Notes under the pieces: model-generated
Told to the model about the DNA's origin: nothing
Database searches by the model: none
The model's input: only the letters and a program-made list of their open reading frames with translations
DNA from: Candidatus Iainarchaeum sp.
GTDB lineage: Archaea; Iainarchaeota; Iainarchaeia; Iainarchaeales; 0-14-0-20-34-12
Direction of reading: 5' to 3'
Assembly: GCA_030649345.1 (NCBI GenBank)
Contig: JAUSKK010000042.1
Coordinates: 14,408 to 46,407 of the forward strand
Length of the DNA stretch: 32,000 nucleotides
Made by a program: the position numbers and the translations under genes
Part shown: in pieces, positions 931-24,291 of the stretch
Layout of the letters: each line of letters begins with the position of its first letter
Position numbering within the stretch: the first letter of the stretch is position 1

Positions 931-1353
931 CTAGACTTTTAATTCAGTTAAACGCAGAATTTCTGGAAATTTATCAAAATTAGAATCCAGAGAATAAATG
1001 TATTTGAGTTTGTGTTTCTGCATAATAGCTATAGCGCAGGCATCTGCTAAATCAATCTGGCATTTGCTGGAAATTTTGAAACCTTGAGTTAAAATTAAGT
1101 CATCTAATTCCACTAGTTCGACACCCGGCAAGTGAATGGTTCGCTCCAGATAATTATTTATATAATCAATGCTTAAGTTTTCACGATTTAAAAGTATGTG
1201 AAATAATTCACCAATATTGAGTGTTGAAAGTAAAACTTTTTCTTGGCCTTGAGTGACTGCTGAAATTATTCCAATGCAGTCTGCTTTACGCGGTGCATTT
1301 TTAATAAATGATTCTAAAAGCACACTAGTGTCTAAATACTTAAGTCTAGTCAC
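931..1353 (-). CDS. PIN-domain ribonuclease (VapC-like toxin)
   Basis: Acidic PIN residues in the expected order: YLDTSVL (Asp near N-terminus), NIGELF, QIDLADAC, SLDSNFDKF. Only GTG is available as a start (1353), preceded by AAGAGGG about 9 nt upstream. Confidence 0.8.
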   Translation of the reverse strand: MTRLKYLDTSVLLESFIKNAPRKADCIGIISAVTQGQEKVLLSTLNIGELFHILLNRENLSIDYINNYLERTIHLPGVELVELDDLILTQGFKISSKCQIDLADACAIAIMQKHKLKYIYSLDSNFDKFPEILRLTELKV

Positions 1354-7700: not shown

Positions 7701-7747
7701 AAGAGTAAAAAAAATACTGCAATGAGATTGAAACGAACACCATTCAT
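1733..7747 (-). CDS. Giant secreted protein (2004 aa): signal peptide, one SLT-like lytic transglycosylase domain, one CARDB-like module and about 11 FN3-like modules with paired Cys
   Basis: 6 kb open frame. The track start is GTG at 7756; the first ATG is at 7747 (MNGVRFNLIAVFFLLLFLVSVNSA, signal-like). Repeating W-T/S ... Y-x-V/P-x-R-C-x(7-10)-C units (YNPVRCDEMNDDSTDC, FRPVRCDKPNPNDC, YNVFRCEKENIADC, YDVLRCAEQELSDC, and others). All 32 mature Cys occur as close pairs. No C-terminal TM segment. Confidence 0.9.
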   Translation of the reverse strand: MNGVRFNLIAVFFLLLFLVSVNSALYSTTLAYNEDQLNSFKETGFNVSETQLKRTDIGSGVNEFSVDDTWVINVKIFPGSQTTGTPLLDLLNAWFYAFSENRVSSTIPQKFANKLGFDKTSFIGILNPNSADFTVFSGTGTLKYSNQNGKVTVSKFTFTSNDVKALLALAGDEKNKGVPTNINLTQTPSTDHPGRIQLAWTIDGPYPPLNYSVFSCYYEFVNNECPSFFFDGQVDTTSTVYEPANASGTTGYIVYAKSLPNGPFIGKSNWVSVSSTSNASNPVVTLTPTRESNNEISVAVAVSPAISNPNYYLFACRTGNCSDIPTTVTEAQITPGVQSLSGPGFSYSSGEYGVQSSQKVAVGVYDSSNGNLYTASDWVNIPALLASTEARDAGSTPPPSPAAAVAGASASVSGAGASVSGAGAGTAPAGTGSDVLRRPTPTGADLGPPLIGPGRSRTQLTEELEDIAPAVEAKSRELNLPALTNIMQLNDYFSSQTGEECPETGIGRNINSANARTVLNPEFVENVTAISNQPSLDVPPAILFGISAAESKFDNQAFACLDKKPIGLGLGLVSTINLAWGYQRPADVADYLFGGKTVEVPDPADDLKTINVSLREQRSQPKHGNVVAVDVGTINSADATKSEIFSCNTVVCTGENIPLWTTPGANLQRAAETYAKSKQRLKCEGPQYNAMTLPGLEDLGLTTREILVIASYRYGPGNVNCKNLSAKAKDYVATVLAYARLFKNAGAFTPDALPAADPNNVVTLTITPLLGGKTKLTWTALENPPADVKYNPVRCDEMNDDSTDCTKNPTSIPVTSGSVTQAIDPNTATNKTFYNVLVEDGDGNPIAESGWGLIPDTMPEVDVTLTVDKQSDGAHLSWGPEGDYVFRPVRCDKPNPNDCVDDDLVPLVPLVRNGAEPTTDDTSIIDSHPNDASKYQVTAEDPDGTVLGTSPMVRVDGSIVGGPEPSDEPTLTLDEAVREGDKITLTWTAENMPNNVEYNVFRCEKENIADCDDGPDSLLDESTVITETSFVDPDNIPDALNALKSRENIDDFSYRIGAFDPATRTLVTTSGDWQKPTEKEENSGASVTADTVEISSIDLITPGSNVYVGQQLEFHVRLNNKTADNLENVMLVFKSKETNQADSELKNAGLLKEKIESMPSGNYPVITRTFKQTREGNRTLCAVIPLDDGTSIQKCTDYVVEVDPNAPSVELTVERTDQENVTLTWTSNNLTNMQYDVLRCAEQELSDCDSKDGYGKYDGAFSLLNNYMEGTETEFKDPDGITVVNNVDELKSRENIGLFSYKIIAVNAEDTDTVLAESPDWIRVDDIPELSIDLIKQNGGIFAGLYMKAHNPDVEFFKPYRCDAVNTDGSIPCDMNNDTAITRGAVNIPRTEGDGYTAFIDSVNNKPIVETTSYYVDSFNVGDIHTGGNGWYTVPTVLDVTIEVSLDEQGAQKARLSWTALEIPNLSYSMTRCEASREGVISCLHDYEIKSDDSGLNYFEAPTDSTSSNLDATPVTINTFYSVNVYNGSERIAQSPWTNALDSVKPALVGGTPASTPATDCKTILECLIPLQKKIIESALTGTVHAVTGVAPGTPTIELTVTPSTDATTAELEWTVTPDISYNFGVLRCDAGITVSGDCANAEEIDLTEKQYVSSPFTDPTNSQQAAADQHQPYANTKYRVIAYPNPLPTNPDGTTADYESLSESAWVPFQEQVVEFEITNTAVDYGSVKIDWTAPEPDTVAYYLPLLCTQELNLDSSVNSETLNALGDLVIADETPDDESDDKTIGDICSVGRKTVLDEKLLSLAFTHSFNLMQENYSKAGNALSLSKQHGYFATVLLFDEFGSNAILRNHTEFASISLSASTVIGDFRYTFTDNSAEDYATITWLAVDNAQAYAVVRCDRLTASGNPSCDELSDSLSWQSGRLPGGIVKLLDATQPNSNKFTDTRPVSSNTTYRVYAYRNWIKPSSSMGATQGGTVLPPTTGQTTQQNTHTLSGILKTLKDQ
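5522..6334 (-). other. SLT / family-1 lytic-transglycosylase-like domain of the 2004-aa protein (residues ~475-745)
   Basis: FGISAAESKFDNQAF (E-S-x-F; the Glu codon is at 6098..6100). VIASYRYGPGNVNC corresponds to the AYNxGPG motif. DYVATVLAYARLF is collinear with the SLT-like domains of the 2285-aa paralog. The GLMQ position is divergent (GLGLGLVS) and there is a long insert. Confidence 0.55.
6371..6586 (-). other. Low-complexity Ala/Gly/Ser/Pro linker (residues ~391-462), locally GC-enriched
   Basis: Encodes TEARDAGSTPPPSPAAAVAGASASVSGAGASVSGAGAGTAPAGTGS...GPPLIGPGRSR. It lies between the N-terminal FN3-like pair and the SLT-like domain. The stop-poor composition produces the spurious track ORF 6397..6642. 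Confidence 0.85.
6477..6518. repeat. 21-bp tandem repeat, 2 copies (20/21 identical)
   Basis: gcaccagcacctgaaacactg (6477..6497) followed by gcaccagcacctgaaacacta (6498..6518). Encodes SVSGAGA twice on the minus strand. Confidence 0.9.
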
Positions 7748-7927: not shown

Positions 7928-8431
7928 ATGACATTAATGAGGAAAGTTGTGCTGGATGCAGATGGCTTGATAAAATTGACCAAAGCAGACATTCTGGAAA
8001 AAATTGTTGAAATTCTGAATTGCAATATATCGCAGGAAGTTTTCACAGAAAGCGTAGAAGAAGGAAAAAAGCTTTTATTTGAAGATGCATTTAAAATTGA
8101 GGAATTGATTCAAAATAAAAAAATAAAAGTTCATGCAACAGAAAAAAAGGAATTCTCGGACTTGGATGGATTTGGAAAAGGAGAAAGAACCAGTTTGGAA
8201 TTGTATTATCAAATTCATGCACAGGCCATTATTAGCGATAATCAAAGATTTTTAAAAGAATTGGAAAAAAAACAAGTGCCGTTCACTACACCGGCAGGAA
8301 TACTTCAGGCACTGTATTGGAACAAAAAATTAAACAAATCAGAGACATTGAATGCATTGGAAAAAATGAAACCATTGATTCAATCAGAAATTTATATCAG
8401 CTTAAAAAAAGAAGTGGAGGAATCTAAATGA
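7928..8431 (+). CDS. PIN-like nucleic-acid-binding protein (DUF3368-type), toxin-like partner of UPF0175
   Basis: VVLDADGLIKLTKADILEKI N-terminus. GKGERTSLELY...AIISDNQRFLKELEKKQVPFTTPAGILQAL matches the DUF3368 pattern (GEaeaI.LA...DD..aR..A...g..v.Gt.giL). ATGA overlap with the next gene. The start could be 7928 or 7937. Confidence 0.7.
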   Translation: MTLMRKVVLDADGLIKLTKADILEKIVEILNCNISQEVFTESVEEGKKLLFEDAFKIEELIQNKKIKVHATEKKEFSDLDGFGKGERTSLELYYQIHAQAIISDNQRFLKELEKKQVPFTTPAGILQALYWNKKLNKSETLNALEKMKPLIQSEIYISLKKEVEESK

Positions 8432-8733
8432 AAGCAAACACTGTCAGTTATCCATTAAGAATTTCAGAGGAAATAATGCAGATCACTGAAATACGAAAGC
8501 GCGAAGAACATGTGGACAAAACCACAGCCTTAAGACAACTCTTGTACAAAGGAGTGGAAGACTATGTTTTGGAGTTGTATGCAAGCGGACGAATCACTCT
8601 AACTAGAACGGCAGAATTATTAAACAAAAATGTTCACGAAGTACTTCAATTGGCTGGAAAAAAAGGAGTGAAAACTGGAGCAAACTCAGAACAACAAAGG
8701 CAAAGTGCGAAAACAGCAGAAAAATTGTTCTAA
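8428..8733 (+). CDS. UPF0175-family antitoxin-like protein
   Basis: VEDYVLELYASGRITLTRTAELLNKNVHEVLQLAGKKGV matches the UPF0175 helix-turn-helix core (A.elY..g.iSlg.AAEl.g....f...l...gi). GGAGG lies 8 nt upstream. 4-nt overlap with the DUF3368-like gene. Confidence 0.7.
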   Translation: MKANTVSYPLRISEEIMQITEIRKREEHVDKTTALRQLLYKGVEDYVLELYASGRITLTRTAELLNKNVHEVLQLAGKKGVKTGANSEQQRQSAKTAEKLF

Positions 8734-8785
8734 ATTCAAAATTATTTGCCGCAAACACAGAATTGACCTAAAAAAGAGACAAATT

Positions 8786-9049
8786 ATGGCTAATAAAAAA
8801 ATTCGGATCACGCAAGAAGCCTATGATTTTTTGGCTTCACAAAAGCGCGAAAATGAAAGTTTCAGTCAAGTAATAATTCGAATATATTCTATGGATCCTG
8901 CTGGACAAAAAATGGATAATCTTAAAATTGCAGACCGGCTAGTGCAAAAAAGCCAGCTAACAAAAAAAGACGTACAAAAGCTCAGCAAAAAAGTAAACCA
9001 AGCTGCTGGAAAACATGCAAAAAAATTATTAAAAAGTTTAAAAAACTAA
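8786..9049 (+). CDS. COG1753/PF02697-type antitoxin-like protein (87 aa) with no adjacent PIN partner
   Basis: The ATG at 8786 gives MANKKIRITQEAYDFLASQKRENESFSQVIIRI. This is collinear with the VapB at 24052 (MAKLIAVSEPAYQELKNLKKENESFSKVILRL). The Lys-rich C-terminal tail differs. The track ORF 8705..9049 looks like an N-terminal over-extension. Confidence 0.6.
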   Translation: MANKKIRITQEAYDFLASQKRENESFSQVIIRIYSMDPAGQKMDNLKIADRLVQKSQLTKKDVQKLSKKVNQAAGKHAKKLLKSLKN

Positions 9050-9059
9050 TTCTAAAAAA

Positions 9060-9671
9060 TTAGCAGGTTTGTCTTAATTGATTAATGCCTGTTTGAGATT
9101 GAGCTAAATTATCCTGCAATACTTGTTCGTCTACAATAAAATTAGAAACTTCAGCGGTTACAGCTTGCGCAGGATAAGCCGATTGAATGGCTTGAACTTT
9201 AGCATTGACAGCCAAAGACTTATTCACAGTCTCAACTGTCTTGGCATGGGTTTGTTCAAACAAACTTAAACTCGGACACGGATTGGAAATAACTGCATCC
9301 AATTGATTGCTGGCTTTCAAAGAATTATATCTTGCTTGAGTTGAGTCAACCAACAATAAATGCAAATCAGTTAATTCTAAAATCGCTTGTTTGTCTTGTT
9401 CGTTTACAAATTTTTTTCCAGAAATTTCTGTTTTAAAATCCTGCAAAGCTTGCTTGACTTCCGTAAAATTTTCATTAGAGTATTCCAATAATTGTTCTCC
9501 GATTACAGCAAAACTAAAACTTCGGGTAATTCGAATATTATCCAATTGGTCAAATGCATTTGTAAAAGTCAACGGAGGTACTGGAAGAGTTTGAGCTGGC
9601 TGGAATACAAATACATAAGCCAAAACAGCGACTACAACTAAAACCAATAAGATTGCGAATTTGTTTGCCAT
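9060..9671 (-). CDS. Membrane-anchored coiled-coil protein, paralog A (203 aa)
   Basis: ATG at 9671. Single N-terminal TM segment (FAILLVLVVVAVLAYVFVF), then a Gln/Leu-rich helical region. Two Cys (NPCPSL and the C-terminal RQTC). Collinear with 17252..17848. Confidence 0.8.
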   Translation of the reverse strand: MANKFAILLVLVVVAVLAYVFVFQPAQTLPVPPLTFTNAFDQLDNIRITRSFSFAVIGEQLLEYSNENFTEVKQALQDFKTEISGKKFVNEQDKQAILELTDLHLLLVDSTQARYNSLKASNQLDAVISNPCPSLSLFEQTHAKTVETVNKSLAVNAKVQAIQSAYPAQAVTAEVSNFIVDEQVLQDNLAQSQTGINQLRQTC

Positions 9672-9692
9672 AATAACTGTAATTATTAGAGT

Positions 9693-9716
9693 AAACTTAT
9701 TTTTAAAGCTTGGGTT
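9693..9716 (-). promoter_or_regulatory. BRE/TATA-like promoter for paralog A; one copy of a perfect 24-bp direct repeat
   Basis: Minus strand reads AACCCAAGCTTTAAAAATAAGTTT. The TATA-like core ends 24 nt upstream of the ATG at 9671. Identical 24-mer at 10363..10386. Confidence 0.5.
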
Positions 9717-9729
9717 GGGAACCCGAATA

Positions 9730-10101
9730 TTAGCCTATTTTTTCTTTAATTTTACGATATGCGTACTCATCTGCCTTTGCATGAAACATTGATTTAAAGG
9801 TCCAAATTATTTTCCCCGACTTCAATCGGTCAGTAAAGAAAGCCGTTACAATAAATGGATCTTTGGACAATACTTTAACAACTACCACCAGATACTTTTC
9901 ACCTACGGGTGTTTTAGGATAAAGCCGATAAAGTAAATGAATTGTTGGATCGTAACTGCTTTCTCGAATTTCTTCTGGATCGAACAAAACCTGTCGGATT
10001 TTATTAAACTGATTTTTGAGTTCTGGTTTTTTCAAAATATGAAGTTTTCGTTCGCTAGTTAAACGAAATAATTTTCCGAAACGGTCTTTCAAAAACTGCA
10101 T
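9730..10101 (-). CDS. Putative toxin (barnase/EndoU/RelE-like fold suspected), partner of the DUF2283-like gene
   Basis: ATG is 1 nt after the upstream stop (TAACATG). Pattern LHILKKPEL ... IRESSYDP ... KYLVVVVKV ... FIVTAFFTDRLKSGKIIW resembles small nuclease toxins paired with DUF2283. The family assignment is tentative. Confidence 0.55.
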   Translation of the reverse strand: MQFLKDRFGKLFRLTSERKLHILKKPELKNQFNKIRQVLFDPEEIRESSYDPTIHLLYRLYPKTPVGEKYLVVVVKVLSKDPFIVTAFFTDRLKSGKIIWTFKSMFHAKADEYAYRKIKEKIG

Positions 10102-10102
10102 G

Positions 10103-10345
10103 TTAACGCGCCAATTTTTTTAAGCGATTAAATTGCACTTGAATTGGAATCAAAATCTTCTCAGTTTTTTGCCCGCGTTTTTTTAAATTAAAAATAGCGA
10201 TTCCGATTACATTTCCTTTGGAATCTACGCGTTCAAAAACGTCATTTCCCAAGTCACGAAAAAAGCCTTTCCGATTAGAAGCTGAAAATTCCAAAAAGTC
10301 ACTTTCAGTATCCAACCAAACTTGAAGTTTTCCATTCGCTTTCAT
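10103..10345 (-). CDS. DUF2283-family (YuzE-like) antitoxin-like protein (80 aa)
   Basis: MKANGKLQVWLDTESDFLEFS...VFERVDSKGNVIGIAIFNLKK matches the DUF2283 pattern (...y d.e.D.lyi......vv.Dld.eG.vvGIEIl..s). The track start at 10363 is TTG; the first ATG is at 10345. Confidence 0.7.
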   Translation of the reverse strand: MKANGKLQVWLDTESDFLEFSASNRKGFFRDLGNDVFERVDSKGNVIGIAIFNLKKRGQKTEKILIPIQVQFNRLKKLAR

Positions 10346-10362
10346 AGTTATATTATACAACA

Positions 10363-10386
10363 AAACTTATTTTTAAAGCTTGGGTT
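10363..10386 (-). promoter_or_regulatory. BRE/TATA-like promoter for the DUF2283 cassette; second copy of the 24-bp direct repeat
   Basis: Identical to 9693..9716. It abuts and overlaps the first base of the stop codon of the 2285-aa gene (10386..10388). The TATA-like core lies about 20-33 nt upstream of the ATG at 10345. Confidence 0.5.
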
Positions 10387-13300
10387 TATTTCAAACCAGT
10401 CTTACGCCAACTGGTTTCAGCTAAAACAAGACCGCGTACATCGCTGGCTACAACTTTAACAAAATAATCTTGGGTTCGGTCAGGCAAAACAAAACTATAG
10501 TCTGTTTCGTTCAAAAATTGATTTTCAATTTTGCACGCCCCTTCAACATTTGAATTCAAAGTACGCAATGATTGACCACGCTTCAAGTTCCGTAAAAGCA
10601 ATGCTTGAATGTCTTGCTCGGTTAATTGAGGCGTAGTATGACACCACCAGATGTCATAATTAATATTTTCTTCTGGATTCCAGGCAGTCCAATACAAAGA
10701 CACAGTAAACTGAGTTGGATCACTTGCAATGGATTCAACATTCAAAGTAGTAATATTCAAGCTGGCTTGTTTGCGTTCAATAAATAAACTGCGAATAATG
10801 TTTTCATTTCCGTATTGAATACATTGCAACAAAGAAGTACATTGTCTTTTTTGTTTAAATTCATAGGGCAATTCAATAATGGAAGAATGCGTCCAATCTG
10901 AACCATTTGGTTTACAGCCTAATTTTGGACAAATGGAAACACTTAACCACAAATTAGGTTCAGTGTAATCTTTCAATGCTTGTTCTAACGTTTTGATTTC
11001 GTTTCCAATTTTTACATTCTGCGTTGGACTATACTTGAATGTTTTAATTTGTTCTTGGTTTGCTTGAATTGCTTTGGGGGGTGAAGAAATAAATTGCTGT
11101 AAATTTAGTCTATCCGCGCCCCAGTTTCTTTCAGCAGTTTTCCATAAATCAATAGAGTAATTGTAAAAATCACACGTTGAATTGAATTGGATTTTCAATT
11201 CTTGTTCTTGAGATAATTTTCCAGTCAAATTATTTAATTCAGAAACATTTGTGATTGTGACAGTACAAGAAGAATTTTCTGAATTGACTTGGGTTGGAGC
11301 TTGAACAAAGTCTGAAACTTTTAAGGTTTCTTTAATATCTGAATCTATTTTGGCTGAATCTACAACACGCAAGGCTTGAATTTTGTAAAATAAATTACCA
11401 GAAGCAGAATTATGCACAGATTCTGTTTCAGTAGTTCGAGTGAGTTCAGTTAGCTTATCATCACTGCAGTTTTCAACACTAGATTCAGTACAAACCAAAA
11501 CAGAATATTGGTTGGCTAAAGGAACTGTTGGCCAACGTAATTCAACAATTAAGCTATGAGTTCGTTTGGCTTTGACAATAAAAGCTAAATCATTTAATTG
11601 TTCTCGCAATGTTTGACAGCGTTCTCTGATTTTTTGTTTCACGTCATCATTGCCAGTAATTGCGGCCAGTTGTTCTTCTAGGTTTAAAGGACACGAATCC
11701 AGTAAACCCAATAATAAAGCGCGTTGTTCTTCCGGCAAACTTAATGCACTGATTTCTTGTTTTAAAGAATCAGCTGTAATGATTACATCCAAGCATTTTT
11801 CTTCTGTGGTTCCAGAAATGCGGGCACAAATTCTATGCTGGCCTTCTTTGAGTCTTCCAGTTAAACCTGGAGCTAAAGTAACAGTTTGAGATTCTGAAAT
11901 ATCAATAGGCTGAGTTAAATAAGATGAAATATTCAAAGATTGGCCGTCAGCAAATAATTCAACTCCAGCTTCTCCTATGAATTTAATGCTTCCAGCGTTT
12001 TCCAATTCAACACGTGCTTCCAGGAAAGCATCGGCCGCAATATTGGGAAAAGGAATTAATGTAAATGATTTAACTTTCAAGTCAGTTTTTTCTGCACTTA
12101 AAGGAATGGGTTGTGCAAAATTAATTTCTGAAAAAGTTTGCTTCCAGCCAAATACATTTTGAACATAATTCAGCAAAGAATCTCCGCCTACATCAGAGCT
12201 AACTTTCAATAAATATCCTGCACCTCGATTGCCATTGTAAGGTGTTAATACAAAATGCGCACTAGCATTTGGATCGGCACAATTCATGTGTTCAATCGGT
12301 GTTGTGCCCAGTCCTTGATCGGATGCAATGCTTAAAACTTCTACAAAAGAAACTCCAGGCAATCCTTCGACTTGTTTGCGTAAAATTGCTTTACAAGGAT
12401 TTTCTGGAAGTACGGATTCAGCAAAGTTTTTAACTAATTTCATGTTTCCAGTTAAGTTTGCAATTCCGACAGTTAAATTTTCTTCAGGATTTGTTTTTGC
12501 GGTTTCTGCTTGAGTATTCAAATAATAAAAAGGCAATTGCATTAAACCGTAATTTCCCATTTCTGGACTTGGAGATGAATGGGTTTCAATTTTGCCGGCA
12601 TCAAAAGAAGGATTGCGGACCATAATCATGGCGGCAATTAAGTCTTTGGCTTTATTGGAAAAAACATGTTCATTGTCAAGTGATTCACTTAATTTTTGAA
12701 TTGCTTGACCATATTTGATAGCTTGTTGTGCCTGGTAATAATCATACTGGTTTGAAGTTTTTCCTGTTTCAATCAATGAATGCAAAGACTGAATGCTTCC
12801 ATTAAATTGTAAATACAAAGTAGCTGTATTTGTGCTTAATCTAGGAATTAAAAAGTCTGGAACTACAGGCACTGAAATCCATTCAGTTACTGCAACTAAA
12901 ATTTGATCTGAATTGTAGGCAAATAATTTGTAAAATTTTACGCTTACAGCTTCATTTAATCCAATGGAATAATTTCGAATAACTGGTTCATTAATTAATT
13001 GAACTTGAGTTCCAGAACCGCACAATAAATCATTGGTTTCTTTACAAGAACTTAGTTTAAAAGATTTAATGGAACTATCCAAAACTGCTGGCAAACCAGT
13101 ACTCCAGTCAAAACTTAAATTTTCAGTGTCCAGCCAGCGAAGATTCATAGAAGCTTTTGGCACTTCTGCTAATTGAACTTTAGAAGAAGCCAATATAGGT
13201 TCGCGTACTTTACCTAAAGATTCGTGTAGTTTATATCGAATAGCTTGAACATAATACACTGGCAAAAAATCTTCGTCAGATAATTCAGAATCAGAATAAA

Positions 13301-16300
13301 CTAAATTGGTTTGAGTGGAAAGCAATTCAAAGTTTGCAGTATCCAAACATTCAGTTATTCCAGCAGCACAACGATATACTTCGTAGCTTTCAGCTTGCGG
13401 ATGCTTGCTCCAAGTCAATTGCATAGAATCATTCAGTAAACGATTTACGTTTAATCTAAAATCAAATCTGCTTAATTCGTCTCTTAGTTTTATGCAATTT
13501 GCTTTAATTTTTTCTTTCAATGCAGTGAAATCTGTATTTGGATATTTTCGTGTAAGGTCTAAAAATACAGTATCTAAATCACTTTCAGAGGCAGGGCAAG
13601 CAATTGTAAGATTGGCTAAAGCTTCTCGGTCTATGGGTTGAATCGGCAAACGTGCAATCTCCGGAGCTAGTTCAGCTATAGGTGAAGGTTTGGGAACAAT
13701 TTCCACTGCAGGCAAACAGGATTGAATAGTAGTTTCATAGTCTTTGACTTTAGCGCAAATTAAAATATTGGTTAAAGATTGAGTTAAACCTTTTTCTTCA
13801 ATGGATTCAGGAGTCTGCGGTGCTTGATATAGGTGAGTCAATAGTCCTTGATCCAATTTAACTTTGGCAACAGGACCAGTGTGTTGTTGGGTTGATTCCA
13901 AAACTGAAACCAATTCTTGCGATACCACAGTAGATCCAATGTTTAATTGAATTACGGCATTTTCTAAATTTACTGAACCATTGTTTTGAATTGAAATTGA
14001 AAATTCTTGTTCTGAATCTTCTTCAAGTTGGTTGCTTGCAGGAATTGATGAACTATTCAAAGTCAATAAAACTTGTCTGGGGTCAAATGCAGGCAAAGGT
14101 TTTACTGGAACAATAGTCCAAGAACTTTGAGCTATCACTTGATTGCTTGAATTCAGTGCTTGAATTTTGTAAAAATTTTTAACTTCACTTGCTGGAATAC
14201 CAAAAGTTAAAGCATTGGGATCTGAAATAATTTCTGGCGGAATTTGAGTAAGCGAACATTCACTTGCATTGATTTTGTCACAAGTTAAAATTTGAAATGT
14301 TTGCATTTGTGGTTTAAGTAAAAGATCGTATTGCCAATGTAAGCTTAAATCACCTGAAGAAATCCATTCAGAGCTTAAAGTCATATCTGAAACAGGTAAT
14401 GCTTGAGGTGGAACTGTGCGTTCTTGTTCGAGTCTTTCTTGTTCTTTGAAATAATTTTCAAATAAAACTTTCCAAGCTAAAACTCGAATGGCATAATAAT
14501 GATCTCCACCAGCAGTACTTTGTACAATTTTCTGGCCTTTTTGTGCACCTTTTCCATAAGACACACAATCTGTTCCAGCTGGACCCCAATTGTAGCCATT
14601 GACTGCCAAAGCTTCATGCATGGTAATTCCGTATTCTTCTAAGCCTGCAATCAAACCATACGTATTTTCGCATTTGTTGTAAACAGTAGCTGTTTGCTGG
14701 GGTTTATAGCCAGGGTATGCTGACAAGTAAGCAATTAAAAAATTGGTTCCTTTTTCCATATTTTTTTCTGGATTTTGTTTAGTTCGTTCAGTTAAAACAG
14801 GCCCAATATTGAATCCATTAAAGTGAGTAGAATTAAACGACAAGCGAGCAATATGCATTAAACCATAAGATTGCTGCCTAGGCTCTAAGCCTGCACTTTC
14901 ATTGGCTGAATTTTTTTCAAAATTGCTTTCTTGTTTAATCACTCCAGCCAATAATGATTTGCCGGAATTTCGAATTACAGTTCCAACTTCTTCCTGCAAA
15001 CGTGCTCCATGTAAAATCACTAAATCGCGCACTTGTTTGGATGCATGGGTCCAAGTGCGTTCCACATTTTCTGAAGTAAAAGTTCCTCCAGCAAATGGTC
15101 CACTGCGAATAATTTCTCGAATAACTGTATCCAGTCTTTTTACTTTTCCATCCGGTGTATCCACGTAAACAATATTGGACTGCAATGTTGCTGGATCTGT
15201 AGCTGTTTCAACTGAACAAGATTTAATCGCTGGATCTGAAACCAATACTGCACAAATATTAATGGACCGGCGCAATAAAAACAAACCACTGCCGTGATAC
15301 CAAAAGGGCTCGGAAAATTCTTGTCCTGCCTTTACAGTTGCTTCGCTTTTTTTAATATCAACACCATTAATAGTAAATTTTACTTGGATGTCTTGAGATT
15401 GTAAAGAATTCAATTGAGCCCGCATGGAAAACTTTTGGCCTGGAACAATTATTTCCGGCGCCAAAACAACAGCTTGAATAGCCAAAGGAGGAATTGCAAC
15501 TTGAACAGTTAATGGACCAGTGCAAAATTCTTGGTCTGGATTTTTAATTTGAGCACACAATTCATAACTTCCTGAAGTTACGGAAGGCAAAGTGCTTAGA
15601 TCAATACTGGAAGGAACACCAACTTGTTTTTGAGCTTCAAGTGTATCCATTTCATAACTGGCTAATTGAGCACGAACTGTTCCTTCTTTTTTCAAAACTA
15701 AATTTACTTGCGGAGTCACAGAATTTTCAGTTAAATTTTTCACAGTAGTTGTAATATTAAATCCTGTTCCAGCTACAATGGGCTCAGTGAAACTCAATTG
15801 AATATCTAAAGCTTTGGCTGGAGCTCCTGAGCCAGCAGAGGCTGAAGTAGCTGAAGCTTTTTGAGCATTTTGATTGGCTAAATTTTTTAATATTTCTGCT
15901 TTGATAGTTTGAAGTTTTGCAGGATCTTTCATTTCAACTTTAGCCAAATTTGCAACCCAATACTTTGCAAAACCAATCAATGGAACTTTGCTGACTGAAA
16001 AAGTATAATCCAACAAACCATCGGAAACCGTCATGGATTGTCGACCAGTGTAAGACCACACGGATTGACCAGCACCAGTGTCACTTGGATACGGAACTAA
16101 AGGAAAATTAGGAACTTGAATTCCTTGAGTGGAAAAATTAATTTGAGTTTGAGTTGAATAAACATAAAATTCGTCTGGCGCTTGCAGACAATCTTGGCCA
16201 AAATAGTTTTCACAAACTGAAAAGTAAACAATAATTTTGGCATCTTCTGAAAAACCATTTTGACTTGAAAAAAATACTTCTTGAGTACTGAGATTGTCTT

Positions 16301-17243
16301 GTCTTAAATTAAACGAAACTGGAACAGTTTGATTTTTGAAATTTTTGGATTCATCGCGATAACCATTCCAAGATTTAATTAAAAAAACACTAATTGGGTC
16401 TTGTTCAACAACTGCTGGTTCAGGAGTAGCTACTGGCTCTCCAGGCAATGGTTCAGAAGAAGGAGCTTCAGGATATAAATCTGCACATGAAAATCCTGTG
16501 GTTTCAAAATTAACTTCCGTTTCACAGGTTTCTTTAGAATAAATACTTGAAAATAAAGAATGTGTAAATAAGCCAATATTTTCCCAGTTAAATTCAGGAG
16601 ACGGATCCCATTTACGGTCGTCAGCTTTTCGCGTACCTGCATTGCATGTTTCATAAAATCCAGCAGAAGGTTCTAATTCATAATGACCGCGAACAAGAGT
16701 ATTGGCAATATTAAATTTATTTTGATAAATTTGCTGGAAATATGTAAATAAAGAATTCAATTGAGCATACTGTTGAACAGTATATTCTTCTCCTTTTCTT
16801 CCAGAATTTTCCAATTCAATTCCAATGGATAATTGTTCCATTGAATCTAAACTTTGCAAATCAGAAACAAATTGAGTATTGTTGGCACACGCAGAAGTAT
16901 TTTGCCCAGAACCTTTTAAATGATCTGCAACTTTTTCTAAATCACAAATATAATGAATGGTTCCATCTTTAGCAATCAAAAGATGAGCAGAAGTTCTATT
17001 TTGTTTAAATAAACGCAAAGAATTTGCAGTATCTGTTCCAGTATGATGCAAGACAACTGTTACTGAATCCGTAAAGTTTGCAGGCGTTCGATTAAATCCT
17101 GCTTTCGGATTAGAACACAAAAATCCTTCGGTTCTATGATCTTGAACATTTAAAACAGAGGGAAGTAAATCAATGGCAAAAATTGAAACAGAAAACAAGA
17201 ACAAAATTGAGAAAACCAATGCCAAGCGAAGAAAAGGTTTCAT
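10386..17243 (-). CDS. Giant secreted multi-domain murein-hydrolase-like protein (2285 aa): signal peptide, Amidase_2, two SLT-like domains, CARDB-like and FN3-like modules
   Basis: 6.9 kb open frame. The track start is GTG at 17261; the first ATG at 17243 gives MKPFLRLALVFSILFLFSVSIFA. See the domain sub-features. Cys occur in close pairs inside modules (YEVYRCAAGITEC, SSCKETNDLLC, VLVCTESSVENC, LCAQIKNPDQEFC, ICAVLVSDPAIKSC). No C-terminal TM segment. Confidence 0.9.
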   Translation of the reverse strand: MKPFLRLALVFSILFLFSVSIFAIDLLPSVLNVQDHRTEGFLCSNPKAGFNRTPANFTDSVTVVLHHTGTDTANSLRLFKQNRTSAHLLIAKDGTIHYICDLEKVADHLKGSGQNTSACANNTQFVSDLQSLDSMEQLSIGIELENSGRKGEEYTVQQYAQLNSLFTYFQQIYQNKFNIANTLVRGHYELEPSAGFYETCNAGTRKADDRKWDPSPEFNWENIGLFTHSLFSSIYSKETCETEVNFETTGFSCADLYPEAPSSEPLPGEPVATPEPAVVEQDPISVFLIKSWNGYRDESKNFKNQTVPVSFNLRQDNLSTQEVFFSSQNGFSEDAKIIVYFSVCENYFGQDCLQAPDEFYVYSTQTQINFSTQGIQVPNFPLVPYPSDTGAGQSVWSYTGRQSMTVSDGLLDYTFSVSKVPLIGFAKYWVANLAKVEMKDPAKLQTIKAEILKNLANQNAQKASATSASAGSGAPAKALDIQLSFTEPIVAGTGFNITTTVKNLTENSVTPQVNLVLKKEGTVRAQLASYEMDTLEAQKQVGVPSSIDLSTLPSVTSGSYELCAQIKNPDQEFCTGPLTVQVAIPPLAIQAVVLAPEIIVPGQKFSMRAQLNSLQSQDIQVKFTINGVDIKKSEATVKAGQEFSEPFWYHGSGLFLLRRSINICAVLVSDPAIKSCSVETATDPATLQSNIVYVDTPDGKVKRLDTVIREIIRSGPFAGGTFTSENVERTWTHASKQVRDLVILHGARLQEEVGTVIRNSGKSLLAGVIKQESNFEKNSANESAGLEPRQQSYGLMHIARLSFNSTHFNGFNIGPVLTERTKQNPEKNMEKGTNFLIAYLSAYPGYKPQQTATVYNKCENTYGLIAGLEEYGITMHEALAVNGYNWGPAGTDCVSYGKGAQKGQKIVQSTAGGDHYYAIRVLAWKVLFENYFKEQERLEQERTVPPQALPVSDMTLSSEWISSGDLSLHWQYDLLLKPQMQTFQILTCDKINASECSLTQIPPEIISDPNALTFGIPASEVKNFYKIQALNSSNQVIAQSSWTIVPVKPLPAFDPRQVLLTLNSSSIPASNQLEEDSEQEFSISIQNNGSVNLENAVIQLNIGSTVVSQELVSVLESTQQHTGPVAKVKLDQGLLTHLYQAPQTPESIEEKGLTQSLTNILICAKVKDYETTIQSCLPAVEIVPKPSPIAELAPEIARLPIQPIDREALANLTIACPASESDLDTVFLDLTRKYPNTDFTALKEKIKANCIKLRDELSRFDFRLNVNRLLNDSMQLTWSKHPQAESYEVYRCAAGITECLDTANFELLSTQTNLVYSDSELSDEDFLPVYYVQAIRYKLHESLGKVREPILASSKVQLAEVPKASMNLRWLDTENLSFDWSTGLPAVLDSSIKSFKLSSCKETNDLLCGSGTQVQLINEPVIRNYSIGLNEAVSVKFYKLFAYNSDQILVAVTEWISVPVVPDFLIPRLSTNTATLYLQFNGSIQSLHSLIETGKTSNQYDYYQAQQAIKYGQAIQKLSESLDNEHVFSNKAKDLIAAMIMVRNPSFDAGKIETHSSPSPEMGNYGLMQLPFYYLNTQAETAKTNPEENLTVGIANLTGNMKLVKNFAESVLPENPCKAILRKQVEGLPGVSFVEVLSIASDQGLGTTPIEHMNCADPNASAHFVLTPYNGNRGAGYLLKVSSDVGGDSLLNYVQNVFGWKQTFSEINFAQPIPLSAEKTDLKVKSFTLIPFPNIAADAFLEARVELENAGSIKFIGEAGVELFADGQSLNISSYLTQPIDISESQTVTLAPGLTGRLKEGQHRICARISGTTEEKCLDVIITADSLKQEISALSLPEEQRALLLGLLDSCPLNLEEQLAAITGNDDVKQKIRERCQTLREQLNDLAFIVKAKRTHSLIVELRWPTVPLANQYSVLVCTESSVENCSDDKLTELTRTTETESVHNSASGNLFYKIQALRVVDSAKIDSDIKETLKVSDFVQAPTQVNSENSSCTVTITNVSELNNLTGKLSQEQELKIQFNSTCDFYNYSIDLWKTAERNWGADRLNLQQFISSPPKAIQANQEQIKTFKYSPTQNVKIGNEIKTLEQALKDYTEPNLWLSVSICPKLGCKPNGSDWTHSSIIELPYEFKQKRQCTSLLQCIQYGNENIIRSLFIERKQASLNITTLNVESIASDPTQFTVSLYWTAWNPEENINYDIWWCHTTPQLTEQDIQALLLRNLKRGQSLRTLNSNVEGACKIENQFLNETDYSFVLPDRTQDYFVKVVASDVRGLVLAETSWRKTGLK
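12117..12749 (-). other. SLT-like domain 2, residues ~1505-1715, with a non-canonical catalytic motif
   Basis: NYGLMQLPFYY is conserved and LLNYVQNVFGWKQTF is collinear with domain 1. The E-S-x-F position reads VRNPSF (12603..12620), so there is no Glu. Confidence 0.5.
14457..15029 (-). other. SLT lytic-transglycosylase-like domain 1, residues ~745-935
   Basis: AGVIKQESNFEKNS (the Glu codon at 14928..14930 checked by hand), SYGLMHIA, ALAVNGYNWGPAGTDC, HYYAIRVLAWKVLF. Confidence 0.7.
16587..17078 (-). other. N-acetylmuramoyl-L-alanine amidase (Amidase_2/PGRP-like) domain, residues ~62-225
   Basis: VVLHHTG (17037..17057 checked by hand), SAHLLIAKDGTIHY, SIGIELENSG, YTVQQYAQLNSLFTYF, VRGHYELEP. 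The order and spacing are typical of AmpD / T7-lysozyme / PGRP zinc amidases. Confidence 0.7.
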
Positions 17244-17251
17244 ATATGATA

Positions 17252-17848
17252 TCACCCACACAAAGCTTTTAATTCGTTCACTTGTTCCTGTGAAGAGATA
17301 ATCAAGTTTTGGAGTATTCTTGTTTCGGTTTGTAAATCCAGTAAGGAAAGCTCAGCAGCTTGCGCAGAATATTGTGTTTCAAATTCATTAATTTTTTGGT
17401 TCAAAGCAAGAGTTTTAGAAAACACTTCTTCGAGTACTGTTTGTCTTTCTTCAAATTTAGAAATATTCACACAAATTTGCTCTGAGCTTATTTCGTCTAA
17501 TTCAAAATTGAGTTTAGCTAAATTTTTTCTAGATTGAGTTTTTTCTGCATTCAATAAATAAATATCCGTTAACATAACAACTGAAGGACTGCTTGAATTT
17601 TGAGTTTTATAGGTTTGCAGAGATTGGATTAATTTAGTTAAACCAGAATCTTGTACTTGAATTAAGTCAAAATCAGTTAGTACAAATTCTATTTGGTTTT
17701 CAGAATAAAAAAACGCAATCTTTGCTTGAGTTTCTGTAATGGATTTAGGTTGAATGCCAGAAAAAAGAGTGGAAAGATACGGAAATGCTAAATACAAAAT
17801 TCCAATAAGAACTAAAACAAGGATTAGGTTTTTCCAGCGGTTTTCCAA
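17252..17848 (-). CDS. Membrane-anchored coiled-coil protein, paralog B (198 aa)
   Basis: N-terminal TM segment (LILVLVLIGILYLAFPYL), then a helical Gln/Leu/Glu-rich region. Two Cys (EQICVN and the C-terminal KALCG). Only a TTG start is available at 17848. The stop is 8 nt before the ATG of the 2285-aa gene. Confidence 0.75.
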   Translation of the reverse strand: MENRWKNLILVLVLIGILYLAFPYLSTLFSGIQPKSITETQAKIAFFYSENQIEFVLTDFDLIQVQDSGLTKLIQSLQTYKTQNSSSPSVVMLTDIYLLNAEKTQSRKNLAKLNFELDEISSEQICVNISKFEERQTVLEEVFSKTLALNQKINEFETQYSAQAAELSLLDLQTETRILQNLIISSQEQVNELKALCG

Positions 17849-17904
17849 AATATCACTACATATAATACTTAAATGAAATAAATAAAGGTTTGGGTTGGTT
17901 TACA

Positions 17905-18318
17905 CTACTTAAATGGGTTAATAACTTCAATTCCGGAAAATTGGTTAAAATCTTTTTCATTTTCAGTAAATATTTTTGTAACACCCTGTTCTAACATAGT
18001 AAAATAAATCAATAAATCCCAAAAATCATGCTTAGGGTTATCTTTTTGAATAACATTCCAAACAGTATTCTCAGAATATGAAATTTTAATCCAGTTGGAA
18101 GACTTAAGAACAGCCAATGCAACCAATTTTGCATTTTCAAGCTGTTCCATGGTTAATTTGCGTTTGCACAGATAATAAAATTCAGAAACATTCTGAGTTG
18201 AAATATAAGCATTTTCTTTAAAGCCTTTTTTTACAAGCTCTTTGGCAATTTTATGCTTTCGAGAATCCGAATTATCCAGAGCATAAAACAAAATATTGGT
18301 ATCAATGAGTGCGTTCAT
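17905..18318 (-). CDS. vapC: PIN-domain ribonuclease toxin VapC
   Basis: MNALIDTNILFYAL, NVSEFYY, FWDLLIYF, FTENEKDF. The ATG at 18318 is preferred over the track GTG at 18327. 17-nt overlap with the upstream RHH gene. Confidence 0.85.
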   Translation of the reverse strand: MNALIDTNILFYALDNSDSRKHKIAKELVKKGFKENAYISTQNVSEFYYLCKRKLTMEQLENAKLVALAVLKSSNWIKISYSENTVWNVIQKDNPKHDFWDLLIYFTMLEQGVTKIFTENEKDFNQFSGIEVINPFK

Positions 18319-18541
18319 GAAGTTCACTTCGAGTTTTGTATCGCAAATTTGAAACTTTCATTCCTTTTTCAATTACAGACAAAGCTTGGTCAATTACAGT
18401 GTCTTTTTCATTTAACCAGACAGAAAAGGCTTCGCTTACAGCTTTAGCCAAATAACCTTTCTTTTTGCCGTATTTTTCTTCCGCTTTTTTTCTAAATTGG
18501 TCAGCTAACTCTTCAGATATATTCAAAGTAATCGTATGCAT
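18302..18541 (-). CDS. vapB: Ribbon-helix-helix (CopG/VapB-type) antitoxin
   Basis: MHTITLNISEELADQFRKKAEEKYGKKKGYLAKAVSEAFSVWL fits a beta-strand plus two helices RHH pattern. It lies directly upstream of the PIN gene and overlaps it. Confidence 0.75.
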   Translation of the reverse strand: MHTITLNISEELADQFRKKAEEKYGKKKGYLAKAVSEAFSVWLNEKDTVIDQALSVIEKGMKVSNLRYKTRSELHERTH

Positions 18542-18597: not shown

Positions 18598-20511
18598 CTA
18601 ATTAAACTTAAAGTTTTCAATCAATTTTTCAGGTTCTAAGGTTTCAATAAAAGAAATGTCTTTCGGCAGGCAAGTTTTGTAGTTTTTCCAAGTATAGCGT
18701 TCATCCAAGAAAACAATGACACCGCGGTCTTTTTCTGAACGAATCACTCGGCCGGCAGATTGAAGAGCTCGGACAATGGCAGGATACAAGTAAGCATATT
18801 TCCAGCCGGAGCCAAATTTATCTTCATAATAGTCAATCAAGCATTGAACTTCCAAAGACAATTCTTGCAAGGGAACGCCTACAACAATGGCACCCAATAA
18901 ATCATATCCCGGAAAATCAATGCCTTCACTTAAGCTTCCGTTGGCGCAGGCAAACAATAAAGCTCCTTGTTTTTGAGAACAATTTCGAAACGCGTTCAAT
19001 AATTCTGATTTCTCCGAAGAAGACATATTTTCTTTTTGAACCAAAATTTTTTTTCGATTAATGGAAGGAAATTGAGCTAAGACAGTATTCAAAAAATTAA
19101 AGGAAGGAAAAAATACCGCAGTATTTCCTGGAATTTTTTCTGCAATAGAGAAAATTTTTTCAGCAAACAAAACATACTGGGAAAGAGTACGCTGGGAATA
19201 CCGTGAAGAAAGATTGGGCACAATTAAATGCAATGCATTTTCTTTGGGAAAATCACCAGAATATTCTTGGCATACTGTATTTTCAGGATCTAAACCTAAA
19301 ACATCGGCATACATTTGCGTAGGCAGTAAAGTTCCGGACATTAAAATAGTTGAATGAACTTTGGAAAAAATATTTTCAGAAATCGTGCGGGGATCCAAAG
19401 CACGCACTTGAAGGCTGGTAGAACGATTGGGGTGTTTTTTCAAAACACGAATCACGGATGGCTCGTCCGTAAACCATTTTTCCAAAAATTGGGCAATGGT
19501 TAACAAAGAAGAATAACCTTGATTTACAGTTTCCATATATTCGATGCTTTGCATCCGCAATTCTTCGGCCAATAATTTCAAATCCAGTTCACCGGAAATA
19601 AATTCAGAAAATTCAATTGGAGTAATTAAAGATTCATTGGCTGGAGAAATAATTTTTTTTGCAGACAAAGATTCCAAGCAAATAATTAATTTTCGCAAAT
19701 CTTGAATTAAAAGAGAATGATTTAATTTTTCAAGTTCAAGAATGCCGCGATCCAGTAAAGAAGTGCTTAAACTTTGGCTTAACAATTTACGAATCCGGTC
19801 CGGCAAATTATGGGCTTCGTCTACAATCAAAATACAGTCTTCTAACTTAACATTTAATCGAGCCAATAAAACTCTTTGAATTTCCGGATTAAAAATATGG
19901 TAATAGTCTGCTACCAAAACTTGGGCTTTTTTTCCAAGATCCAAAGCAACTTCATACGGACACAAAGGTTTGAGTTCTTCTCCGACCCGAAAATTTTTAG
20001 CTTTATGTTTGATGTCCAAATGACGGGCAGTACTTGAAAATCGTTTTTTGATTTGAGTTAAATGTTCACGTGCTTGAAGTATTTGATTTTTAGAATAACC
20101 TGTAGAATTTCCGTACATTTCGCATTGTTCTTTTTCGCGTACTTTTTTGCACAATTCATAAAATCCTTGTTCTGCAGTTTTAATCAAAGGATGAATGCAC
20201 ATATACTTTCGGCCTACCAAATCAACAGCCTTCAAATTCAAATCAAATTTTAAAGACAAATCTTCGCAGACTTGCAAGGCAATTTCATGCTGAGAAATTT
20301 TGGGAGTTAAAAATAAAACTTTTTTATTGTTCTGCAAAGCATACGAAATCGCCGGACTTAAAGCAGCGTCTGTCTTTCCCAAGCCTACCGAAGCATGGGC
20401 CACCAAATTTTGGCCAGAATGTAAAACTTGCGCAATATCTTGAATCAATTTTTTTTGAGGTTTTCGGACTTGATCAAAACGAAAATATACTTTTTCAGGA
20501 ATCGAAGACAT
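18598..20511 (-). CDS. xpd: XPD/Rad3-family ATP-dependent 5'-3' DNA helicase with Fe-S domain
   Basis: Walker A AHASVGLGKTDAAL. DEAH box LIVDEAHNLPD. Four Cys between motifs I and II (YMCIHP, ELCKKVREKEQCEMYG, LCPYEVA). C-terminal QSAGRVIRSEKDRG motif VI. Confidence 0.9.
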   Translation of the reverse strand: MSSIPEKVYFRFDQVRKPQKKLIQDIAQVLHSGQNLVAHASVGLGKTDAALSPAISYALQNNKKVLFLTPKISQHEIALQVCEDLSLKFDLNLKAVDLVGRKYMCIHPLIKTAEQGFYELCKKVREKEQCEMYGNSTGYSKNQILQAREHLTQIKKRFSSTARHLDIKHKAKNFRVGEELKPLCPYEVALDLGKKAQVLVADYYHIFNPEIQRVLLARLNVKLEDCILIVDEAHNLPDRIRKLLSQSLSTSLLDRGILELEKLNHSLLIQDLRKLIICLESLSAKKIISPANESLITPIEFSEFISGELDLKLLAEELRMQSIEYMETVNQGYSSLLTIAQFLEKWFTDEPSVIRVLKKHPNRSTSLQVRALDPRTISENIFSKVHSTILMSGTLLPTQMYADVLGLDPENTVCQEYSGDFPKENALHLIVPNLSSRYSQRTLSQYVLFAEKIFSIAEKIPGNTAVFFPSFNFLNTVLAQFPSINRKKILVQKENMSSSEKSELLNAFRNCSQKQGALLFACANGSLSEGIDFPGYDLLGAIVVGVPLQELSLEVQCLIDYYEDKFGSGWKYAYLYPAIVRALQSAGRVIRSEKDRGVIVFLDERYTWKNYKTCLPKDISFIETLEPEKLIENFKFN

Positions 20512-21171: not shown

Positions 21172-21200
21172 AGTAATACATAGTAATACAAAGTAATATA
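21171..21200. repeat. Three tandem 10-bp units (tagtaataca, tagtaataca, aagtaatata) in a divergent promoter region; candidate operator
   Basis: Two perfect copies plus one 8/10 copy. The array starts at the last base of the RHH start codon and ends 41 nt upstream of the ATPase ATG. Confidence 0.6.
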
Positions 21201-21240
21201 AAGATTTAGGTGGAAAAATTACTTGCTGAGAGAGGAATGT

Positions 21241-23174: not shown

Positions 23175-23176
23175 TT

Positions 23177-24282: not shown

Positions 24283-24291
24283 GGAATTTTT

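Follow-up and report, generated by a model that had tools for sequence, protein, structure and literature searches.

What are the two small membrane proteins encoded in a 32,000-nucleotide (nt) stretch of contig JAUSKK010000042.1 of Candidatus Iainarchaeum sp. (hereafter the window, always meant at its full length), and what might they do for the giant proteins encoded downstream of them on the same strand? We refer to the small proteins as paralogs A and B, and to the giants that follow them as giants A and B. In the record both small proteins are hypothetical (Q7S92_05670 and Q7S92_05690), their source being a 46-kb contig of a Candidatus Diapherotrites (DPANN) genome assembled from a metagenome. 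A first-pass annotation had proposed that a membrane-anchored coiled-coil gene and a giant hydrolase gene formed an ancestral unit that was later duplicated in tandem, the small protein being a candidate membrane tether, export chaperone or immunity partner. The data reported here place the two small proteins in what appears to be a previously undescribed family of DPANN archaea, whose genes typically stand at the head of genes for secreted proteins. Based on this conserved module, the reading that we find most plausible is that the family represents a membrane-anchored partner, either an anchor or an assembly factor, of secreted proteins that are devoid of an anchor of their own at the cell surface, to which we would assign a probability of roughly 0.45.

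The paralogy of the two small proteins is supported by a BLASTP alignment spanning their full length (72.4 bits, E = 1e-20), in which 53 of 205 positions (26%) are identical and 50% positive; in the stretch for which 13 identities out of 29 had been quoted, our own count from this alignment is 12, a trivial difference. Each protein possesses one hydrophobic N-terminal segment (residues 1-31 in paralog A, 4-32 in paralog B), and both cysteines align (C132 and C203 in paralog A numbering). The TTG start assigned to paralog B agrees with the N-termini of its homologs, which read M[DE]xKWRN. Family membership was tested independently by a HMMER search of 1.84 billion cluster representatives with a 3-sequence profile, which retrieved 54 proteins at E<=1e-3; nearly all of them are 186-254 amino acids (aa) long and most match almost end to end, the exceptions being two long proteins matched in several stretches and a small number of sequences on either side of this size range. 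A word-indexed search recovered only the two paralogs and one relative at 73% identity. The scores of paralogs A and B against the family hidden Markov model (HMM) (E = 1.1e-56 and 1.4e-51, respectively) are partly circular, since both window sequences are included in the alignment from which the HMM was built. The named sources of family members are Ca. Diapherotrites, Ca. Micrarchaeota and simply "archaeon".

The analysis of a 39-member alignment of the family revealed that the two cysteines, whose conservation had been noticed from the two window sequences, are the sole invariant columns, M1, F36 and F162 being nearly invariant. No conserved polar residue resembling a catalytic one was found in this alignment, as would be expected of a scaffold or binding protein rather than of an enzyme. 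No Pfam family was matched by more than one of the 39 members, and the searches of NCBIfam, PHROGs, PADLOC and the PDB sequence profile gave no credible match for the small proteins; a Synaptobrevin match (E = 0.017) was rejected as compositional. The small proteins could thus be assigned to no known family, and both the family and its synteny (see below) appear to be undescribed.

The structure of paralog A, predicted by AlphaFold2 from the family alignment, is all-helical and of high confidence (mean predicted local distance difference test score, pLDDT, 95.0; predicted template modelling score, pTM, 0.82). It comprises a transmembrane (TM) helix (residues 4-23), which together with the hydrophobicity profiles bears out the single N-terminal TM segment suggested for each protein, followed by helices 36-49, 58-63, 66-84, 91-127, 132-165 and 182-202, and by two further short helices (167-173 and 175-178). 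In the model the fold of the family is a compact helical bundle, the longest helix of which spans about 37 residues, and not a long coiled coil, so that the label "coiled-coil" given at first has to be dropped. Foldseek searches of the model against PDB and BFVD gave no credible match, none being better than about E = 0.2 (the best one in BFVD at E = 0.18). The first cysteine opens helix 132-165 and the second one ends the last helix, a geometry compatible with a disulfide that would probably close a helical hairpin. Since Lys/Arg residues precede the hydrophobic helix of about 20 residues, the N-terminus is expected to lie inside the cell and the C-terminus, with the bundle, outside. Judging from these sequence features, a family member should begin with a very short stretch in the cytoplasm, which leads into a single TM helix and then, outside the cell, into about 170 residues forming the helical bundle.

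The genomic context of the family was analyzed in 12 further loci (designated by the letter L in what follows) which, together with the window, represent 13 loci and 19 family copies, the extra copies having been found with the family HMM. In 17 of the 19 copies the next gene on the same strand starts within a range of -56 to +61 nt relative to the stop codon of the family gene and encodes either a signal-peptide protein or another family copy, with frequent overlaps of 4 nt (ATGA type) between the two genes. The secreted proteins encoded by these next genes range from 449 to 2285 aa, and where a second family copy intervenes, it precedes such a protein in its turn. The predicted synteny, that is, a small TM gene followed by a gene for a large secreted protein, is therefore conserved. 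The exceptions to this close pairing are paralog A, which is parted from giant A by a toxin-antitoxin (TA)-like island, and the contig of the relative P0003, where an AAA_14/DUF4143 gene comes next; in locus L029 the gap amounts to 144 nt and the partner is nonetheless a signal-peptide protein. The partners carry an N-terminal hydrophobic segment only, and they are heterogeneous: one has a Laminin_G_3 domain, most show no Pfam domain over threshold, and a hydrolase domain is missing from most of them according to Pfam.

The closest placeable relative of paralog B, P0006 (locus L030), overlaps its next gene by 8 nt. The partner in this case measures at least 828 aa, combines two copies of Amidase_2 with a Peptidase_M23 domain, and aligns with the N-terminus of giant B at 35% identity (E = 8e-48); the homology of the two partners indicates that the pairing of a B-type small protein with a murein hydrolase is conserved. 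The expectation that relatives would harbor the small gene beside an Amidase_2/SLT gene thus holds for the L030 pair, but not for most of the other partners, and the link with hydrolases is a lineage-specific use of a wider module consisting of a small TM bundle protein and a secreted protein. Tandem modules also occur in three other genomes, with two copies in L004/L005, three in L010 and three in L035.

Some further features of these loci deserve to be mentioned. In L010 (10622-11170) and L035 (10630-11157) a second family copy, divergent and shorter (175-182 aa, HMM E = 1e-10 to 1e-15), comes immediately after the first one and ahead of a large secreted protein, an arrangement that suggests a possible heterodimeric pair. 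At two loci that are unrelated to each other (the P0003 contig and L035:18296-19555), the family gene or cluster is directly followed by a gene for an AAA_14/DUF4143 ATPase, which might be a recurrent insertion, like the TA genes of the window. Downstream of the family cluster, convergent genes encode Ig-like proteins of 600-850 aa in L001, L007, L008, L009, L018, L031, L034 and L035; these give faint FixG_C/NPCBM_assoc matches, end with a C-terminal TM segment where their ends were read (L018, L031 and L034), and are often accompanied by a protein of about 190 aa and by TrmB, HTH-CBS or MetK genes.

The upstream neighbour of the family cluster in the window is a gene coding for an XPD/Rad3 helicase, and the same neighbour is found in L004, L008 and L035, which marks the family locus as a stable chromosomal site. 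The neighbourhood of the family is, on the whole, a stable chromosomal island of surface-protein genes and not a mobile or viral element. This conserved island (Ig-like proteins with a C-terminal TM segment, TrmB, HTH-CBS, MetK) is also what one would expect if the family were an independent envelope component, namely a structural, membrane-proximal DPANN protein that merely shares an operon with exported proteins and does not bind them specifically; the heterogeneity of the partner families and the promoter that paralog A possesses in spite of its separation from giant A point in the same direction. The recurrent 4-nt overlaps and the presence of an own family copy in each secreted-protein module (in L004, L010, L035 and the window) argue instead for a one-to-one relationship rather than for a generic envelope protein, and on this ground we regard such an independent component as unlikely.

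Within the window, the small gene and that of its giant lie closest together in module B. The TGA stop codon of paralog B (17252-17254) is separated from the ATG of giant B at 17243 by 8 nt (tatcatat), exactly as described in the first-pass annotation; a Shine-Dalgarno-like GGTGAT overlaps the stop codon, and an in-frame GTG at 17261 represents an alternative start at this junction. Since a gap of 8 nt leaves no room for a promoter box, this layout suggests that paralog B and giant B are co-transcribed. Boxes resembling the archaeal B recognition element (BRE) and TATA element precede both paralogs and giant A (Table 1), and from the box in front of it giant A probably has a promoter of its own. 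An exact 9-mer, CCAACCCAA, abuts the TATA-like box of both paralogs (9710-9718 and 17890-17898, minus strand), and a third exact copy lies inside giant B (11289-11297); it could be a shared BRE or a regulatory element retained from the duplication.

The island that parts paralog A from the gene for the 2004-aa giant, already recognized as an opposite-strand TA island, consists of three plus-strand open reading frames (ORFs). It is probably a secondary insertion, because the family gene and that of its partner adjoin each other in other genomes. The DUF2283-like gene and the 123-aa gene located between giant B and paralog A probably represent an inserted TA-like pair as well, and are served by a TATA-like box of their own (10369-10381).

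As to the origin of the two modules, in a neighbour-joining tree of the family, built without support values, the A clade (paralog A, P0003 and P0004) is the sister of the B clade (paralog B, P0005 and P0006). This topology fits a duplication in the ancestor of the sub-lineage, before its split from the relatives P0003-P0006. The proposed tandem duplication of the whole unit, small gene plus giant, is in agreement with these sister clades and with the tandem modules of L004, L010 and L035; however, it remains plausible rather than proven, because the giants have in common only an SLT-like region and Cys-pair Ig/fn3-like repeats, and not the Amidase_2 domain. A pair of 140-aa PIN proteins (931..1353 and 17905..18327) was also considered as part of the duplicated unit and discarded, no BLASTP alignment being obtained between the two.

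The giants themselves were both supposed to be hydrolases, a supposition that stands for giant B alone. Its Amidase_2 and SLT (lytic transglycosylase) domains both score over threshold (Table 1), and the latter contains a QES motif with the catalytic Glu-Ser pair. A second, degenerate SLT-like region of the same protein shows Arg-Asn in place of Glu-Ser (MIMVRNPSFD), so that this copy probably binds glycans and is not catalytic. GTDB genomes were scanned with giant B, and no relative was found. In giant A, no domain exceeds the Pfam threshold and no Amidase_2 match was obtained; nevertheless, one region gives an SLT match under the cutoff, contains an AAES motif and an insertion of about 70 aa, aligns with giant B at its ES and GPG motifs, and is homologous to the stretch of giant B that follows the SLT catalytic core (BLASTP E = 4e-12), which suggests a divergent SLT-like domain at residues ~530-760. 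A homolog search and a PDB sequence search with this segment gave no match, and its AlphaFold2 model (pLDDT 34, from a 3-sequence alignment) is too poor to test the fold. The case for giant A as a hydrolase is therefore weak, and on sequence grounds it is not demonstrably one.

The proximity of the small gene to a murein amidase/lytic transglycosylase, both in the window and in L030, brings to mind an immunity or inhibitor protein guarding the producer from its own hydrolase, and small proteins encoded beside toxins are often immunity factors. Several lines of evidence make such a role, which had been listed among the initial candidates, very improbable: to our knowledge archaea have no murein and hence no self-target; most partners are heterogeneous proteins lacking a hydrolase domain; the ectodomain would lie outside the cell; the gene is upstream of its partner and the family occupies a stable chromosomal site beside core genes; and no PADLOC or PHROG match was found. 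The same neighbour, joined with an N-terminal TM segment, a helical periplasmic-type domain and cysteines, confers on the small protein a superficial likeness to an i-spanin (such as lambda Rz), and one might imagine a phage-like lysis cassette with a spanin- or holin-like companion of an endolysin. We give hardly any credit to this idea: PHROGs gave no match, and the best fold match in BFVD only reached E = 0.18; phage genes are absent from the context, a conserved chromosomal site next to the XPD helicase; the hydrolase, a multidomain protein of 2285 aa, is secreted through a signal peptide; and the partners found elsewhere are not lysins.

Two other properties of the giants bear on the role of the small proteins. 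Firstly, giants A and B have an N-terminal hydrophobic segment only, with no C-terminal or other convincing TM segment, so that the early remark on their lack of anchors proves correct. Secondly, they are rich in cysteines (33 and 40 Cys), which are arranged in paired-Cys repeats: a pattern search for "LTW...Y.V.RC...C" returned seven Ig/fn3-like repeats in giant A and three in giant B. This abundance, the two invariant cysteines of the family, the tight translational coupling and the extracellular location would all be compatible with an export or folding helper, that is, a tethered bundle acting transiently as a dedicated chaperone or maturation factor, which might for instance hold very large Cys-rich substrates once they have been translocated by Sec, or guide the formation of their disulfides, without staying bound to them. 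Yet the two cysteines lie 70 residues apart and do not form a CxxC redox motif, and no other polar residue is conserved; the partners vary from 75 to 2285 aa and some contain few cysteines; and no similarity to known chaperones or oxidoreductases was detected. A transient helper is in our opinion a rather unlikely account of the family.

A possible link between the small protein and its partners came from the ends of the latter. In five other complete clusters (L001, L005, L006, L008 and L035) one secreted protein terminates in a Cys-rich peptide with the consensus CxxCx5C-L-A-C-I-D-x-x-F-x-x-G-[VI]-F; the peptide is internal in two proteins of L010, occurs also in the incomplete loci L018, L031 and L032, and its DNA pattern was matched in L034. 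The instances from L001-L010 are similar to each other with pairwise E-values between 1e-4 and 5e-8, and the L035 instance matches the motif HMM at 4e-13. The peptide is the main likeness among the mostly unrelated L001-L010 proteins, some of which share other regions as well, and in L001 it makes up almost the whole of the mature 75-aa protein. It carries no annotation, and might act as a signal for sorting or docking, or form a knuckle stabilised by metal or disulfides. We consider it a candidate tag by which proteins would dock to the small membrane protein.

In the window giants the motif is less evident. A motif HMM built from seven non-window instances has its best match in giant A at residues 1556-1571 (6.6 bits, independent E-value 0.025), a score reached by 0 of 300 shuffled sequences; the best match in giant B (residues 2140-2147, -0.1 bits) was equalled by 7 of 300 shuffles and is not significant. 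The motif is accordingly a lead, and not a demonstrated part of the modules of the window. A DNA-pattern scan for QCLACIDxxF in GTDB genomes returned 18 matches, among which only L018 (from an archaeon metagenome-assembled genome, MAG) is strong against the motif HMM (2.3e-14); the other 17 are bacterial, five of them with weak scores (3.5e-4 to 5.5e-3), and were taken as chance matches. The same kind of scan in metagenomes yielded four loci, two being strong against the motif HMM and a third displaying the TrmB/Ig-like layout; all four end before the position at which a family gene would be expected. One might go further and speculate that the family is the membrane half of a modular, sortase-independent display system of DPANN archaea, in which each copy would capture the anchorless secreted proteins translated together with it, perhaps through the CLACID peptide or through a disulfide; tandem modules would then arm the surface with interchangeable adhesins and, in this genome, also with giant murein hydrolases for attacking bacterial hosts or feeding on them. 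This extended proposal is a speculative one, and we consider it improbable in its full form.

Returning to the membrane-anchored partner, from the position, topology and coupling of the family we infer both a physical interaction with the secreted protein and a role in anchoring it; the tether, among the functions initially listed, thus stays the most plausible. The following scenario can be envisaged. The small gene would be transcribed from its own near-leaderless promoter and would be translationally coupled to the next gene or genes, encoding proteins exported by the Sec pathway and devoid of a membrane anchor; at the membrane, the small protein would take over the exported protein, which would in this way stay bound to the surface or assembled on it. 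Module B (paralog B and giant B) would be intact and co-transcribed, and would display a murein amidase/lytic transglycosylase able to act on bacterial cell walls only. Module A, in tandem with module B by the XPD gene, would have been split by the TA island, leaving giant A on its own promoter.

Some observations weigh against this scenario. The partners share no common domain except the short Cys motif, which is statistically weak in the window giants; module A keeps its small gene even though this is separated from its partner, and in the P0003 contig the next gene encodes the AAA_14/DUF4143 ATPase. In addition, an archaeal surface protein can retain its signal peptide uncleaved and be anchored by it, in which case a separate anchor would be unnecessary. 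Finally, a compact bundle whose longest helix is of about 37 residues offers no obvious long stalk.

Table 1. Coordinates of the features discussed in the text (window positions unless a locus is given).
Feature	Coordinates	Strand	Remarks
Paralog A	9060..9671	-	203 aa, ATG start; family member
Paralog B	17252..17848	-	198 aa, TTG start; family member; N-terminal TM helix, two invariant Cys
Giant A	1733..7747	-	2004 aa from ATG 7747; signal peptide, secreted
SLT-like region of giant A	5477..6169	-	aa ~530-760; SLT E = 0.0089, 16 bits, under the 21.3 cutoff
Candidate Cys-rich motif, giant A	3002..3067	-	aa 1564-1585, DCKTILECLIPLQKKIIESAL
Giant B	10386..17243	-	2285 aa from ATG 17243; signal peptide, secreted multidomain protein
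Amidase_2 of giant B	16599..17060	-	aa 68-221; PF01510, E = 3.3e-15, 57 bits (cutoff 26)
SLT (lytic transglycosylase) of giant B	14664..14969	-	aa 765-866; PF01464, E = 6.3e-11, 42.3 bits (cutoff 21.3)
Second, degenerate SLT-like region of giant B	12084-12746	-	aa ~1506-1726; E = 0.14
Candidate, weak Cys-rich motif, giant B	10776..10841	-	aa 2141-2162, QCTSLLQCIQYGNENIIRSLF
BRE/TATA-like box AACCTTTATTTAT	17878..17890	-	29 nt upstream of the paralog B start codon; preceded by CCAACCCAA
BRE/TATA-like box AAGCTTTAAAAAT	9699..9711	-	27 nt upstream of the paralog A ATG; preceded by CCAACCCAA
BRE/TATA-like box AAGCTTTAAATAA	7804..7816	-	Upstream of giant A
TA-like island between paralog A and giant A	7928..9049	+	Opposite strand; three ORFs
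167-aa ORF of the island	7928..8431	+	PADLOC PDC-S70 match
UPF0175-like ORF of the island	8428..8733	+	22.5 bits, under the 27.9 cutoff
VapB antitoxin of the island	8705..9049	+	PF02697
DUF2283-like gene and 123-aa gene	9730..10363	-	Between giant B and paralog A; DUF2283 20.4 bits (cutoff 23)
XPD/Rad3 helicase	18598..20511	-	Pfam; upstream neighbour of the family cluster
Cys-rich-peptide protein, L001	12117-12344
Cys-rich-peptide protein, L005	5374-6681
Cys-rich-peptide protein, L006	8736-9473
Cys-rich-peptide protein, L008	10677-12359
Cys-rich-peptide protein, L035	13211-14395
Cys-rich-peptide protein, L018	6079-6789
Proteins with internal Cys-rich peptide, L010	13136-16153 and 19150-20612

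As for the rest of the window, its base composition is about 34% G+C, and its genes include, in addition to the XPD/Rad3 helicase, a PAC2 proteasome chaperone, a T2SSE-type ATPase and many TA genes of PIN/VapB type; no tRNA or Rfam element was found in it. The TA-like pairs are very dense (931-1353, 7928-9049, 9730-10363, 17905-18541, 20636-21276 and 24060-24681) and comprise three PIN proteins, two VapB antitoxins and UPF0175-like, DUF2283-like and PDC-S70-like ORFs; they are scattered among the surface-protein modules, and their insertion apparently broke module A in two. A third large protein (1594 aa, 26670-31454, minus strand) carries a signal-like segment at its N-terminus and a TM helix at its C-terminus, and has no Pfam domain; it is a candidate for an S-layer or surface protein which, in contrast to both giants, would have an anchor of its own. 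The T2SSE-type ATPase (PF00437, E = 5e-36) and two membrane proteins encoded after it lie at 21223-23995 (plus strand), the first membrane protein being weakly T2SSF-like (20.8 bits against a cutoff of 25.2); the three resemble the assembly core of an archaeal type IV pilus-like system, and their genes are placed divergently beside the XPD helicase and the surface modules.

The way in which DPANN archaea build their surface and hold on to the large proteins presumed to mediate attachment to a host is largely unknown. A small family that is conserved, can be folded with confidence in silico and heads operons for secreted proteins offers a concrete hypothesis that is cheap to address. If the anchoring role were true, the family would represent a genomic marker for surface or effector proteins in DPANN genomes, and the giant murein hydrolases linked to it here imply an interaction with bacteria rather than with archaea.

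The modules can be compared with several known systems. The anchor of the surface proteins of Micrarchaeota has been reported as unknown, a second, TM "stalk" protein being proposed, and the analogy with SlaA/SlaB was also raised for these proteins (bioRxiv 10.1101/2021.04.28.441871). As in the SlaA/SlaB pair of Sulfolobales, a small, membrane-anchored and largely helical subunit would share an operon with a large secreted protein lacking an anchor; SlaB holds SlaA on a wall-less archaeal cell, and the small family might thus be a functional analogue of it. The resemblance does not extend to sequence or fold, no match to SlaB being found in the PDB searches. SlaB has a C-terminal TM segment, beta-sandwich domains and a long coiled coil, and its gene comes after slaA, whereas the family described here is characterized by an N-terminal TM segment, a compact bundle of about 170 aa, a gene placed before that of the partner, diverse partners and repeated modules.

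Regarding the giants, Pacearchaeota and Woesearchaeota encode large extracellular proteins with an SLT domain, up to about 3000 aa in length, which have been interpreted as tools that bind or degrade bacterial walls (PMC8204110). Giant B resembles the fam00969 proteins of that account in being a secreted DPANN protein of more than 2000 aa with an SLT domain and a predicted ability to bind or degrade bacterial walls; it differs from them in its origin from a Diapherotrites MAG and in its additional Amidase_2 domain, and the portion of the account considered mentions no small membrane partner (PMC8204110).

Some looser likenesses can also be drawn. Phage cassettes of i-spanin (Rz) and endolysin share with our pairs the N-terminal TM segment, the helical extracytoplasmic domain with cysteines and the murein-hydrolase neighbour, but the small family has no homology or fold match to i-spanins, lies in a non-viral context, is not accompanied by an o-spanin and has partners that are mostly not lysins. 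LemA (PF04011) and IcmG/DotF (NF038218) also combine a single N-terminal TM segment with a helical domain approximately 180 residues long; LemA was matched by none of the 39 family members at E<=0.01, and the IcmG/DotF match of a small protein (20.6 bits against a curated cutoff of 200) was dismissed as compositional. Displays of the cohesin-dockerin type, in which a membrane or scaffold protein captures unrelated secreted proteins through a short tag, would find a counterpart in the candidate tag CxxCx5CLACIDxxFxxGxF; the comparison is purely analogical, with no homology involved and with a tag that is weak in the window giants. Overall, an anchor joined with a secreted surface protein is a known kind of system, of which the family and the synteny described here, both apparently undescribed so far, would be a further case.

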